Assembly: GCA_964493715.1 (NCBI GenBank)
Contig: CAZBPC010000083.1
Coordinates: 4,269-15,089 of the forward strand
Reading direction: 5' to 3'
Length of the DNA: 10,821 nt
Origin: an uncultured archaeon
Lineage (GTDB): Archaea > Asgardarchaeota > Lokiarchaeia > Sigyniarchaeales > SOKP01
Shown here: positions 3,026 through 10,821 of the stretch, piece by piece
Position numbering within the stretch: the first letter of the stretch is position 1
Layout of the letters: each line of letters opens with the position of its first letter
Made by a program: the position numbers and the translations under genes
The notes under the pieces: generated by a model
Databases searched by the model: none
Told to the model about the DNA's origin: nothing
The model's input: the letters and a program-made list of their open reading frames with translations, nothing else

Positions 3026-3427
3026 TTGAAAATTGCAATAAGTACAGATTCGGGTCAAGTATGTCCTCATTTTGGTCGTGCGCCAGAATTTACCTTCATA
3101 ACTATTGAGAATAGTGAAATAATTGGGAAAGAAGTTCTCCCAAATCCCGGGCATACAGTAGGAAGCATTCCAAAATTCTTGAGCGAACAGGGAGCTAACT
3201 ACATCATTTCGGGTGGAATGGGTAGTAGAGCAGTCCAATTCTTCAATCAGTATAACATAGAAGTTATAACGGGGGTTGAAGGTAGTATTGATAGTGTAAT
3301 AAAAGAATTCATAAATGGAACATTAGAAGGTACAGATGGTATTTGCACTCCTGGAGCGGGTAAAGGATATGGAATCGAAAAAATCCATACTGAAGCTGAT
3401 GATGATCAAGAACAACACCATCATTAA
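3026..3427 (+). CDS. NifB/NifX-family (Nitro_FeMo-Co, COG1433) metal-cluster-binding protein
   Basis: KIAI...VCPHFGRAPEF, IISGGMGSRA, IEVITGVEG. C-terminal Cys plus acidic/His tail. TTG start. Confidence 0.9.
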   Translation: MKIAISTDSGQVCPHFGRAPEFTFITIENSEIIGKEVLPNPGHTVGSIPKFLSEQGANYIISGGMGSRAVQFFNQYNIEVITGVEGSIDSVIKEFINGTLEGTDGICTPGAGKGYGIEKIHTEADDDQEQHHH

Positions 3428-3482
3428 ATACAACTTTAATGAGTATTATTAAATTATTATTATTATTAATACACTTGAAATC

Positions 3483-4727
3483 TTGACAGATACTGGTAAA
3501 GACGGGATTAGATTGAAGTTTTATGAAAATTTATTATTTATCAACATAATTCTTTTAATCATAAGTATTTCTCTATTCGTCTTTAAACTCGTGTTTAGTA
3601 TGCTTACTAATAGCATAGCACTCCAAGCGGATGCTTTTGATAGCATGACTGATATCGTTATCTATCTATCTGGTATAATTGGGTTTGTTTTTGCTAATAA
3701 GAAACCAAATGAAAAATTTCCATATGGGTATTATAAAATAGAGAACATAATAAGTCTCATTATCTCTCTATTCATTTTTTTGACAGCTTATAACATTATA
3801 GTTCAAGGATTTAAAGATATAATCAATTATTTCAATGGAATTCCAAAATTAACTTTTTTTTTAAATGATGTGTTTATTTTCTTAGTGATCTCATTAACTT
3901 TATCACTATCAATAACAATTTACTTGAAATACGTGTCCAAGAGAACTAATTCACCAATTCTTAAATCTGAAGCAAATGAAAAAATGTCGGATATATTTAT
4001 TTCTTTATCAGTTTTAATAGGTTTTATTGGAATTTTGTTTAATTTCAACCTTTTAGATTCCATTTTTGGTTTAATCATTGTTATTTTCATCATCAAGGCT
4101 GGATACGATATTTTTATCGTGTCCATAAGAACATTACTCGATGCAGTCATAGACTTTGAAAATCGGTCAGAACTCTATAAAATGATCGAAAACGCTCCAA
4201 AAATTAAAAAAATTAAAAAGTTAGATGTTAGAGCTTATGGTAGGTTTATATTTTTAGAATTAGAGCTCATTCTAAATAAAAATTTTCCATTATCTCAAAT
4301 CAATTCTCTAAAAAACAAGTTAAGAATGGAGATCACACAAAAATTCCCCCTAATTCTCAAAATTATAATCATCATTGATAATGCTGAAAAATATGAAACG
4401 AAAATTGCTGTGCCTTTAAGAGATTCGCAAGGGTTAAATTCAAAAATCTCTGATCATTTTGGAGAAAGTCCATTTTTTGGATTTTTGGAATTTCAAGAAG
4501 GTAATTTTTTAAAATTAGAGATTGTGAAAAATGAATTTATCAATCAAGCAAAAAGAAAAGGAATTCTAATATCAGATTGGCTCAGTACACAAAAAGTTGA
4601 TAAAGTATATGTTAAAAATGAATTAAAAAAAGGACCTTCTCTAATATTTGAAAATAATTTTGTAGAAATAATAATAATTGATTTTGAAACATTAAACAAC
4701 ATATTACAAATCGAAAAGGACAAATAA
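3483..4727 (+). CDS. Cation diffusion facilitator (FieF-like) fused to C-terminal NifB/NifX domain
   Basis: SIALQADAFDSMTD, KPNEKFPYGYYKIEN, hydrophobic TM segments. From about aa 307, KIAVPL...ISDHFGESPFF marks a NifX-like domain. TTG start is uncertain. Confidence 0.9.
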   Translation: MTDTGKDGIRLKFYENLLFINIILLIISISLFVFKLVFSMLTNSIALQADAFDSMTDIVIYLSGIIGFVFANKKPNEKFPYGYYKIENIISLIISLFIFLTAYNIIVQGFKDIINYFNGIPKLTFFLNDVFIFLVISLTLSLSITIYLKYVSKRTNSPILKSEANEKMSDIFISLSVLIGFIGILFNFNLLDSIFGLIIVIFIIKAGYDIFIVSIRTLLDAVIDFENRSELYKMIENAPKIKKIKKLDVRAYGRFIFLELELILNKNFPLSQINSLKNKLRMEITQKFPLILKIIIIIDNAEKYETKIAVPLRDSQGLNSKISDHFGESPFFGFLEFQEGNFLKLEIVKNEFINQAKRKGILISDWLSTQKVDKVYVKNELKKGPSLIFENNFVEIIIIDFETLNNILQIEKDK

Positions 4728-4789: not shown

Positions 4790-7072
4790 TTATCTATAAA
4801 AGTCACTTGGTGTGTCTTTAATCTGATCTTTATAAGACTTTTTAGCCTTATCAGCGCCTAGCTTGATCTTATCGATCGCTACTTCGAATTCATCTTGGGA
4901 AATAAAAACAGTTTTATAAGATTCAGGATCTAAGATGTTGATATTTTTATCTTTAACGGCTCTTCGAATTGCTAATAATGTTGCTTCTTCACATATTGCT
5001 TTGATGTCAGCACCCGTATAGCCTTCTAATAATTCTGCAAGTTTTTCAACATCAATATTTTGATTTACAGGTCGATTCGAAAGATGGATTTTGAAGATTT
5101 CAATTCTTGATGTCTTATTTGGCAATGGAACCTCTATATGTCTTCCAAAACGTCCTGAGCGCAGTAACGCAGGATCTAATAAATCAGGTCGGTTTGTTGC
5201 AGCAATGAGTACAACATTGTGTAATTCTTCTAAACCATCCATTTCTGTTAATAATTGTGCAACTACTTGTTCAACAACATGAGAGCCAGATCCTTCTGAT
5301 CTTTTTACCGCAATAGCATCAATCTCATCAAAAAAAATGATACAAGGTGCTGCAGCTCGTGCTTTTCTAAATGTTTCTCTTACGGCTTTTGCACTATCTC
5401 CAACCCATTTTGATAAAAATTCCGGACCCTTAATCGAGATGAAATTTATTTCTGTTTCATGAGCGAGTGCTTTAACCATCAATGTTTTTCCCGCCCCTGG
5501 AACTCCAAATAGCAAAATTCCATTAGGTGGTTTGGATTTCATATGATCATAAAATCCCGGATAGATAAATGGCCATTCAATAGTTTCTCTTAATTGTTGC
5601 TTGGCTTCTTCTAATCCTCCAATTTCATCCCATGTTTCGTTTGGTTGAGTAATCATTACTTCTCTTAATGCTGAGGGCTCAATTGAATTTAGAGCTTCAA
5701 TTAGATGATTCATTTTGATATTAAGTTTATTTAAGATTGTCTCAGGTATTGGTTTATCCAAATCAATTTCGGGAATTATTTCTCGAATTGCTAATAAAGC
5801 AGCTTCTTTACATAAAGATTTGATATCAGCACCAACAAATCCATGAGTTTTTTCAGCGATTATTTTTAAATCGACGTCATTTTTTAAAGGCATTCCGCGA
5901 GTATGAATCTGCAAAATTTCATAACGTCCTTTCGTATCCGGGACTTTTATTTCAATTTCTCTATCGAATCGACCAGGTCTTCTTAGGGCAACATCAATGT
6001 TATTGATTTTATTTGTGGCAGCTATGACGATGATTTCACCTCTATTATTTAACCCATCCATAAGAGAAAGTAATTGAGCTACAACTCGAGATTCTACTTG
6101 ATTTTTTCCATCTTCCCTTTTTGGAGCAATTGAATCGAGTTCATCAAGAAAAATTATGGAGGGCGCGTTCATTATCCCCTCTTCAAAAATTCTTCTTAAA
6201 TTTTCTTCACTCTGTCCAAAAAACTTACTCATAATTTCAGGTCCGCTAATACTGATGAAATGGGCATCAGTTTCATAAGCAACTGCTTTTGCTAATAATG
6301 TTTTCCCCGTACCTGGTGGTCCATGAAGCAAAACTCCTTTAGGAGCTTCGATTCCAATTCTTTCAAATAATTCAGGATGACGAAGAGGTAATTCAATTAT
6401 CTCGCGAATTTTTTGAATTGAAAGTGCTAATCCTCCAATATCTTCATAAGTAATATCTTCATAATTAATTTTTTGTAGTTTTTCTTCCAATACACCTCTC
6501 CCAGCTGTTCTGATAGATGGACGTCTTAACTCAGTATAAGCTACATTAGATTTTTCACTAAATAATATTTTAGTGTTAAAATTTATTTTCACAGCGTCTA
6601 ATTCTGGTTTAAAATCTAAAACAACCAAATCAATCCTACGTGCCATTGCATAAAAGCTTAAAATGTCCCCTTTAGTGACAACCCTTTTCTCAAGTTTTCG
6701 TGCTAATGCTTGGGGATCTCTTGGTATTAACGAAAGTCCACTAAAAGTTATACTTTCAGCTTCACTTGCTTCAATTTTCTTAATTTCAACAAGATCATCA
6801 ATTGAAGCTCCCAGATTCTTACGTAACGATGGATCCAATCTAACTATATTCGTTTCTTTATCTTCATTTTTTCCTGTATGTAGTACTGCTACTGTATTTT
6901 TATTAGTAAAAGGATGCACGATTTTAATTATATCCCCAACTTTAAAATTCAGTTCATTGGTTACATGCGGATCAATTCGGATTATACCTCTTCCTGCATC
7001 TTCTTTAAAAGCATCTTTTATTCGTACTTTTCTAGGATTTTCTTGATACAATTTAATCCCAACCATTCTCAT
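4790..7072 (-). CDS. cdc48: Cdc48/p97/VAT type II AAA+ ATPase
   Basis: N-domain ([10 protein letters not shown]), D1 GPPGTGKT / IIFLDELD / RRPGRFDR, D2 GVPGAGKT / IIFFDEID / LLRSGRFG, C-terminal FYR. GAGGG spacing favours the second ATG at 7066. Confidence 0.97.
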
Positions 7073-7080
7073 CCCTCTAT

Positions 7081-7110
7081 TTTGTAATAATTTGTAATAA
7101 TTTGTAATAA
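7081..7110. repeat. Perfect 10-bp tandem repeat (TTTGTAATAA)x3
   Basis: Directly visible in the mtd-cdc48 intergenic gap, just upstream of the cdc48 RBS. Confidence 0.95.
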
Positions 7111-7136: not shown

Positions 7137-8156
7137 TTACTCTCTTTCTAATAACGTTTTGGCTACATTAAAAGCGTAATTATAGTCATATATTTTTAAA
7201 CCCTTGGACTCGACAGCTTCTTTAAGAATTTGTCCTTCTACATTGGCTTTAAGGCGTCCTAACGCTAAAGCTCCAATTCCAAAAATTCCTGGATAAATCT
7301 CATCATTATCGTGCTTTGGTTTTATTCCTTCAATACCATATGGTGGGACTAAATTAATATCAACCACAATTTTCTTTTGATCATTTGAGATTCTTTCCAT
7401 TAAGTCCCTAGATAAAATCTCTACACCAGCTGCAGCTAATGACCAGATTACATCAGCATCTTTAGCTATTTGATATCTTTCTTCTGGATCTGGAGCAAAT
7501 ATTCCCTTAATTTGAATTGCTTCCTCTCCTGCCTCTTCATTTAATTCCTCTATAAATTTCTTTAAAAATTCTTTATTTGATTTATCCCATGTTTCGACTA
7601 AGAAAACTTGACCTCCAATTTTAGCTCCCAATATTGCTGCTATTCTTGCTACTGGCCCTGCTCCAAATATGACAATTTTTTTGTTTTTGATCGATTCATT
7701 TCCATATTTCTCTTGCATATCATGATTAGTTTTCGCTACAACAGCAGATGCCGTTGTATGTGAACCCCGTGGATCAATAATTACAGGACATTCAAAGGGA
7801 GGAACTAATGATTTTATTACTTCTTTGGCAATTTTTTCTCCTTCCTTTACATTTGAACCACCTATAAAAAAGGTTGTTGGTGCTTTTGGTTTACGGGAGA
7901 AAATTGCATCCTGAACCAGTTTAGGAACTTGATCAACTGTCATTTTACTTATAGGAACTACAATATCAAATCCAGCATCATATGCCATATTAATATCGAA
8001 AGGTGAAGCAATGTCGTCCGTGTCAAAGAAGAAACAAATCTTATCCGATAAATCTGCTTTTTTAATTTTAATTGGTGTCAATTCCAATATGGTTTTTTTT
8101 CCCAAAATACTCTCTATTTGACGATTTAACTCTTTTTCTTGTGTAATTTTACTCAT
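7137..8156 (-). CDS. mtdB: NAD(P)-dependent methylene-tetrahydromethanopterin dehydrogenase (MtdA/MtdB family)
   Basis: FDTD..ASPFDINMAYDAGFD, LVQDAIFSR, FIGG, VPPF, DPRGSHTTASA, Rossmann GAGPVA, DINLVPPYGIEG, GIGALALG.LK: a full set of Mtd family motifs. The A/B/C subtype is not resolved. Confidence 0.88.
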   Translation of the reverse strand: MSKITQEKELNRQIESILGKKTILELTPIKIKKADLSDKICFFFDTDDIASPFDINMAYDAGFDIVVPISKMTVDQVPKLVQDAIFSRKPKAPTTFFIGGSNVKEGEKIAKEVIKSLVPPFECPVIIDPRGSHTTASAVVAKTNHDMQEKYGNESIKNKKIVIFGAGPVARIAAILGAKIGGQVFLVETWDKSNKEFLKKFIEELNEEAGEEAIQIKGIFAPDPEERYQIAKDADVIWSLAAAGVEILSRDLMERISNDQKKIVVDINLVPPYGIEGIKPKHDNDEIYPGIFGIGALALGRLKANVEGQILKEAVESKGLKIYDYNYAFNVAKTLLERE

Positions 8157-8202
8157 CTCCTACATATTTTATAAGTTTAATATGGTAAATTAAAAAAATT
8201 AA

Positions 8203-8931
8203 TTATTTTGAAATTTCGATTTCCTCTTCTATCACTTCATCAATCTCTTCAGTCTTAATGGATCTTTTTATTTGAATTTGTTCAGTTTCAATTCCTAAAT
8301 CTGAAGCAAGTTTCTCCAATCCATTAAAGTGCCTTAAATCGCAAAGGAACAACCCTTTTAGTTTTTTGCCATCAATTGTTTTAGCGGTATTTAATACATT
8401 CATCATCATCCAAGCTTCTCTTACCTTGTATCTTATTTCATCTTCTTGTGAATTATAATCAGTTTGCAAATACTCTTTCCACATGATTAAGCGTTGAAAA
8501 AGTTCATCTTTTTCAGGGATCCCTCCACTTTTTTCAATAATTTCTTTAATTTTTGTTTCAAGAGATTTAAGCATATTTCTGTGCTCATCTAAGGATGCTG
8601 ACAAATAGAATTCAGCATTTTCAGAGATATCAGCATGTTTGAAAGGAATATTTTTCTGTTCAAATAGATTTTTTAGAGGATCTTCACCTGAATTTAAAGG
8701 ACCAACCCAGAAATTTGGTTTTTCCTCTAAAGCCATATCCGGTTTATATTTTTCTATCAATGATTCAATTAATTCTAAATATTCCTTGCTAATTAGATGC
8801 AAATTCCAAATAAGATCCTCCTTCTTCTCTGCAGGCACCTCAAACCACCAATCAATTGGAAATTCTGACTCGATCATTATGAGTTTAAGATGTTTTTCTT
8901 TTAAAGGTTTTAATTCTAATACTTCTGGCAT
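8203..8931 (-). CDS. Hypothetical protein, paralog of 8953-9573, possible TraB/GumN/TIKI (EreA/ChaN-like) fold with helical insert
   Basis: 242-aa ORF with RBS GAGGGA. YKPDMALEE, VREAWM and LFLCDLRHFNGL echo TraB-like motifs. The fold call is tentative. Confidence 0.75.
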   Translation of the reverse strand: MPEVLELKPLKEKHLKLIMIESEFPIDWWFEVPAEKKEDLIWNLHLISKEYLELIESLIEKYKPDMALEEKPNFWVGPLNSGEDPLKNLFEQKNIPFKHADISENAEFYLSASLDEHRNMLKSLETKIKEIIEKSGGIPEKDELFQRLIMWKEYLQTDYNSQEDEIRYKVREAWMMMNVLNTAKTIDGKKLKGLFLCDLRHFNGLEKLASDLGIETEQIQIKRSIKTEEIDEVIEEEIEISK

Positions 8932-8952
8932 TTTTTTTATCCCTCTTTTTTT

Positions 8953-9573
8953 TTAAAAAATTACATTTTGAATTAGATGTTTTTTGTTATAAGAAATTAC
9001 TTTTGTATTTAATTCTCTTAAAAGTTGCACGACTTGTGGACAGATATCTTCACAAATATCTTCCTGTACAAAATGTACGAAAGAAATTGTGTTTGTATCA
9101 ACTTTTCTAGCCAAGTCTAGCATCTTTTTTACAATCCATTGTGGTCTTAACTTCAAACTCAAAAAATTCTCTCGATCCTGGATTTCTTCGCGAAGCATAT
9201 CTATCCAATTTTTTAGACTCTGCCCTTTATATGACTCCTTATCGTCCATTTTCTCAAATTCTTCAAATAACTCATTTAAAAACTCTTGTTTTGATGAGAT
9301 TTCTTCATATAAATATCCCATTGCATATTCAGGGATATCTAATTGATAATATGGTATTTCCAATTTATCTAATGTTTTAGCAAAAGGAGTCTTACTAAAT
9401 TCTTCCATATCCACCTGAAAGTCAACAGTAACAAAATTGATCTCTTTCTTTTTTAGAAATTCTTCGAGTTTGGATTTATCCTCACTTTGAAAATATTCTG
9501 CATCTTCTTTAGAGGACATATATGAGATTACTTTCTTATTTTTTTTTACCGGTTTTAATTCTAATACTTCCAC
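8953..9573 (-). CDS. Hypothetical protein, paralog of 8203-8931
   Basis: 206-aa ORF, GTG start with RBS GAGGTG. Shares EVLELKPxK, IP[FY]xxxDIxExAxxYL, LxxW and K[VL]RxxW motifs with its neighbour. Confidence 0.8.
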   Translation of the reverse strand: MEVLELKPVKKNKKVISYMSSKEDAEYFQSEDKSKLEEFLKKKEINFVTVDFQVDMEEFSKTPFAKTLDKLEIPYYQLDIPEYAMGYLYEEISSKQEFLNELFEEFEKMDDKESYKGQSLKNWIDMLREEIQDRENFLSLKLRPQWIVKKMLDLARKVDTNTISFVHFVQEDICEDICPQVVQLLRELNTKVISYNKKHLIQNVIF

Positions 9574-9839: not shown

Positions 9840-9881
9840 AAAATAATAATAAACAAAAAAAAAAAATTGGGTGAATGTAGT

Positions 9882-10821
9882 ATGGACGCTTATTCCATTT
9901 TATCTCATCCATTTAGGCGTAAAATTTTATATCTCTTAGAAAGAGAGGGTTATATTCAATATTCAGAAATAATGGAAAGACTTGGTTTAGAATTAACCGG
10001 GCAACTAAATTTTCATTTAAAAAAACTTGGTTCATTAATTGGAAAAGAAAGAAAATCGTATTATTTAACTGAGGATGGTAAAAGAATCCTTAATATGATG
10101 AATTTAAATAAACGCATCTTAGATGGAGAAGAAATTGAACATTTAATCTCAAAAGGTAGTAACTTAAACAGAATTGGTATTATCGTGTGTAATTGCAATG
10201 GGGAAATCTCAAATAATATAAACGTGAATAATCTTATAAATGAACTAAATAATTTGAAAAACGTTGTTTCAATAAGAGTTTTTGAAAACTTATGCCAAGA
10301 AATAAATTTAGAAAAAGTTACAAATTGGGTCAAAGAAAACTTCTTAAATAAAATTGTAATCGCTGCTTGTTCTCCAAAGAGTCATAAACATATAATTGAA
10401 CAGATGTTTGAAGATATTATTGATTATGCAAACATCGAATTTGCTAATATTAGGGAACAATGTTGTTGGGCGCATCAAAACCACAAAAGCCAGATAAGTC
10501 CTCTAATTATCTCTCGAAAAGCATTTTTAATAATAGAAGCAGCAGTAGAAAGAGTGATTCTTCAAGGACCCATTAAAATTAAAAAGGTAGAAGTCGAGAA
10601 TTCCTGTGCTATCTTTGGTGGAGGCATAGCAGGAATGAATTTAGCATTAAATTTAGCACGTGCAGGAATTAAAGTGTACTTAATTGAAAAATCACCCACA
10701 CTTGGGGGAAAAATAGCTCGTTGGCATCGTATATCCAATATGGGGGATTGTTCGATTTGTTTCGTATCTGAATTAATTGGAGAAATTGTCAAACGTGATG
10801 AGATCGAAATTCATACAAATA
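9882..10821 (+). CDS. Winged-helix (ArsR-like) DNA-binding domain fused to heterodisulfide reductase A (HdrA)-like protein, 3'-truncated by window
   Basis: My translation is open for 313 codons from ATG 9882 (RBS GGTGA). aa 1-70: LSHPFRRKILYLL...YSEIMERLGL..TGQLNFHLKKLGSLI....YYLTEDGK. From aa 97: RIGIIVCNCNGEI, LC, VIAACSPKSH, ANIREQCCWAH, GGGIAG, VYLIEKSPTLGG, DCSIC. Absent from ORF track because there is no stop in the window. Confidence 0.92.
   Translation, partial: MDAYSILSHPFRRKILYLLEREGYIQYSEIMERLGLELTGQLNFHLKKLGSLIGKERKSYYLTEDGKRILNMMNLNKRILDGEEIEHLISKGSNLNRIGIIVCNCNGEISNNINVNNLINELNNLKNVVSIRVFENLCQEINLEKVTNWVKENFLNKIVIAACSPKSHKHIIEQMFEDIIDYANIEFANIREQCCWAHQNHKSQISPLIISRKAFLIIEAAVERVILQGPIKIKKVEVENSCAIFGGGIAGMNLALNLARAGIKVYLIEKSPTLGGKIARWHRISNMGDCSICFVSELIGEIVKRDEIEIHTN

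Follow-up and report, generated by a model that had tools for sequence, protein, structure and literature searches.

The window analysed here is a 10,821-nucleotide (nt) stretch of a contig from an uncultured archaeon of the Sigyniarchaeales (Asgardarchaeota; contig CAZBPC010000083.1, positions 4,269 to 15,089, assembly GCA_964493715.1). Three consecutive genes in the window, hypA, hypB and mtd, each encode a copy of one short peptide motif, [VI]LEL[KT]P[VLI]K. This shared peptide is real and conserved, and it marks module boundaries. The first-pass annotation had described it as a tag on three genes, one of them an unrelated enzyme. On comparison with related sequences that description is replaced by paralogy and gene fission: hypA and hypB inherited the motif as paralogous members of a domain family, named X here, and the enzyme, Mtd, is the split-off half of an X-Mtd fusion. 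The Mtd copy had been read as an N-terminal peptide; in the ancestral and widespread fused form it is internal and lies in the linker between X and Mtd. An apparent shared tag on unrelated genes can arise in this way.

The three genes are arranged head-to-tail on the minus strand, in the order hypA, hypB, mtd. The predicted proteins of hypA and hypB begin with MEVLELKPVKK and MPEVLELKPLKE, respectively. The features, in window coordinates, are:

hypA: 8953..9573, minus strand; 206 amino acids (aa), GTG start at 9573; assigned as an X-domain paralogue
hypB: 8203..8931, minus strand; 242 aa, ATG start at 8931; standalone X domain, assigned as what was the N-terminal part of the X-Mtd fusion before its split
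mtd: 7137..8156, minus strand; 339 aa, ATG start at 8156; predicted MtdA/MtdB-type NAD(P)-dependent methylene-tetrahydromethanopterin (methylene-H4MPT) dehydrogenase, assigned as the C-terminal half of the split fusion
Motif copy 1, VLELKPVK: 9544..9567, minus strand; hypA residues 3-10
Motif copy 2, VLELKPLK: 8899..8922, minus strand; hypB residues 4-11
Motif copy 3, ILELTPIK: 8067..8090, minus strand; Mtd residues 23-30
Mtd residues 1-36: 8049..8156, minus strand; leftover inter-domain linker (helix ESILGKK and motif strand), outside the known Mtd fold
hypB-mtd spacer: 8157..8202; 46 nt, fission site inside the former linker
Acidic hypB tail with alternating hydrophobic residues, TEEIDEVIEEEIEISK: 8206..8256, minus strand; in split forms only (alignment A5)

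The three motif copies lie where the first-pass annotation had placed them. A six-frame scan of the whole 3,678,230-base assembly returned the strict pattern, [VI]LEL[KT]P[VLI]K, three times, always in hypA, hypB or mtd; 0.0125 occurrences were expected in the 3,542 open reading frames (ORFs) of at least 100 aa (1,097,602 residues). The looser family pattern, [VILM]L[ED][LIVF].P[VLI]K, was seen three times in the same ORF set, again in these genes, against 0.93 expected. These counts are more than chance would give.

Orthologues of each of the three genes retain the motif, and the codons that encode it vary freely at synonymous sites. In 80 fused X-Mtd proteins (alignment A1) the N-terminal copy has an invariant E5, with L4, L6, P8 and K10 at least 90% conserved; in 92 hypB-type X sequences (alignment A2) E6 is invariant and L5, L7, P9, L10 and K11 are conserved to at least 90%. 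The 258 hypA homologues, all named 'hypothetical protein', come from Asgard or Promethearchaeota records, and nearly all among the matches listed begin M-E-V-L-[ED]-[LFI]-K. The loose pattern falls within the first 25 aa in 102 of the 120 hypA homologues listed, and four more have truncated start calls. When the N-terminal motif profile was run along the 80 fused homologues, the linker window ranked first (11.5 vs 2.1 for the next); its consensus is [IVL][LI]E[LI][TSM]PIK, with the K at 95% and the P at 82%. At the level of species loci, the family pattern stands ahead of Mtd strand 1 in 68 of 80, and Mtd genes of the split clade carry [ST]I[IL]EL[TSA]PI[KIVF]IKK in 40 of 41, the last K of the motif often being replaced by I, V or F. 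Translation is predicted to start ahead of the motif in each of the 16 split loci of one set and in 40 of the 41 of a larger one, the exception (L096) being frameshift-like.

Two explanations had been offered for the likeness of the copies, namely selection on the peptide or a cis-acting nucleic-acid element at the gene starts. The 20-nt identity between the hypB and hypA copies (8906-8925 and 9551-9570) was verified, as were the differing Leu codons of the mtd copy (TTG, vs TTA in hypA and hypB). That identity would suit a nucleic-acid element, as would the finding that the EVLELK codons are identical in 3 of 19 loci (L001, L004 and L017), where codon usage alone predicts 0.008; besides codon bias, common ancestry or an occasional gene conversion may contribute. 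The hypA and hypB copies nevertheless differ synonymously in 16 of the 19 loci, and L002 and L003, the nearest relatives, already show such differences. Where the coding sequence of a relative is richer in GC, the whole peptide is recoded with CTC, CTG, GAG and AAG codons, and the mtd copy, itself recoded, is internal in fused genes. Judged by these codon comparisons, selection is on the peptide and not on the DNA; a conserved nucleotide element is rejected, and its probability is close to nil.

Fusion and fission of X and Mtd

hypB was found in 25 of 41 related genomes, and several of the matches fell inside open frames of 559-595 aa. These long frames encode hypB and Mtd as a single protein, with a hypA homologue directly upstream, and the fused relatives carry a second motif copy in the linker, about nine residues ahead of the Mtd strand KICYFFDTD. 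A fused-protein query gave 332 database matches at E 1e-5 or better. Among the 120 best matches listed, 116 are 540-600 aa long and carry both motif copies. The records are Asgard-labelled and named 'Mpt_N domain-containing protein', 'NAD(P)-dependent methylenetetrahydromethanopterin dehydrogenase' or 'hypothetical protein'; the N-terminal domain is mentioned in no source name among the matches listed.

For the species-level comparison, the 80 best Mtd-relative loci were taken from a genome-contig scan. All were Asgard-type, with one record labelled as a bacterium; 39 were fused and 41 split. In a FastTree phylogeny of 92 X-domain sequences, rooted by assumption on the distant fused loci L028 and L029, the 12 split tips were monophyletic (support 0.999) and lay four nodes from the root. 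Since this split clade is nested among fused forms, the fusion appears to be older and to have been split once in the lineage of the window.

The fission fell inside the linker, and the "N-terminal extension" of Mtd is leftover linker: the conserved ESILGKK of the Mtd leader corresponds to IIGKS, a helix in the linker of fused proteins, and in both cases the motif comes next. The hypB-mtd spacer measures 14-67 nt in 38 of 39 split loci. The remaining locus, L096, has a 47-nt overlap instead; its Mtd frame has an odd start, LILMEVLIFLRKPKKKK, and the overlapping upstream X frame ends in fused-type linker sequence. A frameshifted fused gene or a misassembly is the probable cause. Another locus, L037, is 76% identical to the Mtd of the window and has the split Asgard arrangement, although its record is titled as a bacterial family; the contig is likely mis-binned or mislabelled.

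The hypB-mtd pair resembles split 'Rosetta-stone' pairs: its halves are neighbours in collinear order on one strand, many relatives have a fused orthologue, and all split forms fall into one nested clade. It differs in that a conserved linker strand was left on the downstream half, while the upstream half gained a new acidic tail. A further difference is that a reversed fusion also exists in this family. In this single example (P0285, 496 aa) Mtd comes first (Mpt_N at 16-95) and X last (317-487); the Mtd part begins at strand 1 and is motif-free, and KLEVLDFNKLEGKK is internal, ahead of the X part.

The Mtd of the window is assigned as an MtdA/MtdB-type methylene-H4MPT dehydrogenase by family, full-length homology and fold, its activity being predicted. 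Mpt_N (PF09176) was matched at residues 52-129 with 90.4 bits (cut-off 27; E 8e-26), and residues 37-334 aligned with the solved MtdA structures 6tge, 6tlk and 1lu9 (E about 5e-29; phmmer, E 5.4e-29 over residues 37-333). The modelled Mtd half of a fused relative superposed on 6tlk_A with a target-normalised TM-score of 0.92 and a root-mean-square deviation of 2.0. The NADP-dependent MtdA of Methylorubrum extorquens (PDB 1lu9, 6tlk, 6tge) thus shares the Mpt_N domain and fold, but MtdA begins at strand 1, whereas the window Mtd has a 36-residue leader (helix plus motif strand) ahead of it, and most relatives, unlike MtdA, have the whole 230-residue X domain fused in front.

Locus L028:3316-6978 (genome G030; found in part also in L029) contains three Mtd-type genes in a row. 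One encodes a fused X-Mtd of 565 aa, and another an Mtd whose short leader (TILKIKDKRKK) resembles the linker. The last is convergent and encodes a standalone Mtd, which begins at strand 1 and is without the motif. As MtdA, the Mtd part of P0285 and this standalone Mtd are all motif-free in sequence, the motif is not a property of Mtd as such.

An H4MPT-dependent Wood-Ljungdahl pathway is presumed to operate in Asgard archaea. In the sequences compared here the Mtd step is not a plain MtdA/B enzyme: the enzyme is nearly always joined to an unnamed domain of 230 residues, with a paralogous small protein alongside. X was also considered as a replacement for a missing Mch cyclohydrolase, which was ruled out because Mch (PF02289) is encoded elsewhere in genome G000. 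In a literature search that covered listings, abstracts and passages of PMC12533140, neither the motif nor the N-terminal domain of Asgard Mtd was found described.

The X family and its resemblances

hypA and hypB are 22% identical over 116 aa (BLASTP, E 1e-5), and their similarity identifies them as distant paralogues of one unnamed Asgard-archaeal alpha/beta domain, X. A search with the X profile among 1.84 billion proteins returned 111 cluster representatives only. The matches span both size classes, and hypB-like, fused and hypA-like members mostly begin with the motif. With residues 1-235 of the fused homologue P0022 as Atlas query, standing in for hypB, the nearest clusters were of hypB size (243 aa) and of hypA size (205-206 aa), at 0.93-0.94.

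Invariant or near-invariant residues of hypB-type X are E21, E23, E69, D101, R171, D198 and H201. hypA is without most of the residues invariant in hypB-type X, yet it keeps the motif (alignment A3), and the role of the motif is therefore not tied to the putative acidic/His site of X.

No Pfam family (E 0.01 or better for hypB) and no NCBIfam family was matched by hypA or hypB. A Pfam match of hypA to SNaCT13 was set aside, being below the cut-off (20.7 bits against 27). Sequence and profile searches of PDB sequences with hypB and X gave nothing below E 0.2, and Foldseek gave no PDB match for the hypB model at E 0.001 or better. Structural alignment of the X model with VIA-align, whose own documentation describes Z-scores of 7-8 as typical of chance, returned CbiL (Z 8.8), ChaN (2g5g, Z 8.4; 146 residues, model range 13-226), HopBA1 (Z 7.8) and EreC (Z 6.8). 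Almost all of these alignments begin at residues 11-15, past the motif. The nearest named Atlas cluster to X was TraB/GumN, at 0.83. hhalign of alignment A5 against six TraB proteins of relatives (E 0.006 over 46 columns, with a probability of merely 6.2%) paired the REAWMM helix and CDxxHFxG strand of X with the TraB stretch RNxxM...GxxHVxG.

X may resemble the TraB/PrgY/GumN, ChaN and erythromycin-esterase class in its alpha/beta layout and in the succession of an R..M helix, a strand and an H..G motif. It differs in its first-strand motif, which is IESEF where the TraB proteins of relatives have G..H, and in being without a Pfam match. With scores in a range compatible with chance, the TraB/ChaN-like fold counts as a lead and no more.

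Members of the TraB/ChaN/erythromycin-esterase fold class act on short peptides. On this footing X could be a divergent TraB/PrgY/Tiki/ChaN/erythromycin-esterase-fold module that binds or cuts short peptides, which we hold to be improbable, and the motif could serve it as substrate or pseudo-substrate, the linker and the N-termini then carrying a self-processing or autoinhibitory site, for which our expectation is equally low. The placing of ChaN, HopBA1 and EreC within the VIA-align top 40, the TraB/GumN cluster and the hhalign pairing are in its favour. So is the observation that the residues of X conserved to at least 90% are mostly acidic or His (E21, E23, E69, D101, D198, H201), and the N-terminal peptide is modelled with a predicted local distance difference test (pLDDT) score of about 80 though it forms no regular strand. 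These links are, however, weak enough to be chance (hhalign 6%, Atlas below 0.9), and CbiL, an unrelated methylase, scores higher than any of the fold relatives. The Pfam TraB model (PF01963) matches nothing in the window genes or in genome G000. hypA keeps the motif without the acidic and His residues, and 40 of 41 split Mtd genes retain it where cleavage is unneeded.

The complete form of this proposal, in which X is a peptide-binding or peptidase module with hLEhxPhK as its own cognate peptide and the linker copy gates the Mtd step, is distinctly improbable. If it were true, the linker copy would control the Wood-Ljungdahl pathway of Asgard archaea at its methylene-H4MPT dehydrogenase step, and a single groove would be contested by the N-terminal copies of hypB and of hypA, its inactive paralogue.

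Proposed assembly at the module boundary

The reading that we favour, with slightly better than even confidence, is that the motif is a module-boundary strand that holds the modules together in the hypA / X-Mtd system. The boundary element would be the peptide h-L-E-h-x-P-h-K, which runs on into a Lys-rich loop and then into strand 1 of the domain behind it. The system, made up of the small protein hypA and the X-Mtd fusion, is Asgard-specific. The linker copy, a beta-strand in the model, would pair with a lengthened last strand of X and so clamp Mtd to X, in cis in the fusions and in trans after the split. The new acidic tail of hypB, set against the Lys-rich stretch, could help this clamp and replace the lost covalent link. 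The N-terminal copies of hypB and hypA might, by analogy, dock on the equivalent edge of a neighbouring module, giving one complex of the three products. The first-pass annotation had proposed recruitment of the products to a common partner; a joining role is retained here as the preferred mechanism, but the partner would be the products themselves and not an outside scaffold, the motif being an assembly strand among hypA, hypB and Mtd and not an address tag.

In the AlphaFold2 (AF2) model of the fused protein (mean pLDDT 87.4) the linker motif forms a strand of nine residues (242-250) that follows a helix at 234-240. The last X strand extends over residues 213-224 in this model, vs only 215-219 in the model of hypB alone (pLDDT 87.9, pTM 0.83). 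In the latter, the N-terminal motif has a pLDDT of about 80, vs 34-51 for the C-terminal tail, which suggests an ordered, packed segment. A Lys-rich stretch follows each motif copy. An acidic tail with alternating hydrophobic residues (e.g. EIEKEYEEEVEVEISK) ends 38 of 39 hypB proteins of split loci, and the net charge of the final 18 aa averages -4.7; in fused forms the chain continues into the linker at this point and is tail-free.

Several points weigh against the boundary-strand reading. The N-terminal motif was assigned as a strand in neither the fused nor the hypB-alone model, and pLDDT in the linker region of the fused model is just 61-72. Pairing of 242-250 with 213-224 would follow from the DSSP strings only. 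In distant fused forms the linker copy decays to a plain alternating strand (IEIKVK, IKVKP), and because of this degeneration the likeness of the two copies may be partly convergent. Binding of hypA to hypB or Mtd is conjectural, being drawn by analogy. A complex prediction for hypB and Mtd with hypA as partner scored 0.00 twice, without controls, and carries no weight for or against binding.

Several observations would fit a purely intradomain role, in which each copy caps or packs on its own following domain and joins nothing; on this view the linker copy and the N-terminal copy would have converged on a common type of amphipathic strand with a Lys-rich loop behind it. Each copy stands a few residues before a strand 1 that precedes acidic residues, the linker copy is degenerate in distant members, and the N-terminal copy is ordered in a monomer model. 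Mtd domains manage without the motif, however (solved MtdA, P0285 and the L028 standalone), the last X strand is longer only with the linker present, and the acidic tail arose on hypB exactly at the chain cut. We consider both the capping role and the convergence unlikely.

We regard it as very unlikely that the motif is a short linear tag by which all three products dock on, or are targeted to, an outside partner such as Cdc48, a scaffold or a compartment. In its favour, conservation of the peptide is restricted to these proteins, and a Cdc48-type AAA ATPase gene (4790-7072) comes after mtd on the same strand in the window, as it does in 15 loci of the genus. A short linear motif is recognised by a disordered region and by unrelated carriers; here two carriers are paralogues and the third is a split partner, the usual fused protein has one of its copies in the interior, and pLDDT values of 67-80 with a linker copy modelled as a strand are unlike a disordered linear motif. 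Cdc48 had been named as the candidate partner. Its adjacency is confined to 15 of 31 loci, all of one genus, and is absent from L021-L031, which carry the motifs; as the motif is far more widespread than this arrangement, the Cdc48 link is unsupported.

Under the boundary-strand reading, the repeated motif offers a handle on how the parts assemble, and the natural split clade provides a ready comparison of the system in one piece and in two.

Neighbouring genes and other features of the window

A gene for a winged-helix (wHTH) HdrA-like protein, beginning at 9867, is divergent from hypA. It occupies this position in 18 loci, including L020 and L025 from another family, and is for this reason a more widely conserved neighbour than Cdc48. 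The frame at 9867-10820 encodes a winged-helix (DUF7347) domain fused to a Cys-rich FAD/NAD oxidoreductase resembling HdrA.

One metatranscriptome run contained contigs from a relative that are 90-99% like parts of hypA, hypB and mtd, and these are uninformative on starts and operon structure, as are the gaps in their coverage. The stop of mtd and the start of Cdc48 are separated by a 64-nt spacer, which contains three tandem copies of a 10-nt unit, ATTTGTAATA, at 7081-7110.

Further along the window, a cation-efflux (CDF) transporter with a C-terminal dinitrogenase FeMo-cofactor-binding-like domain (PF02579) is encoded within 3026-4727, with a standalone PF02579 gene before it. Two overlapping small ORFs at 191-719 both have ThiS/MoaD-like (ubiquitin-fold) matches; the second has a Gly-Gly end, and a radical-SAM gene adjoins at 749-1687.

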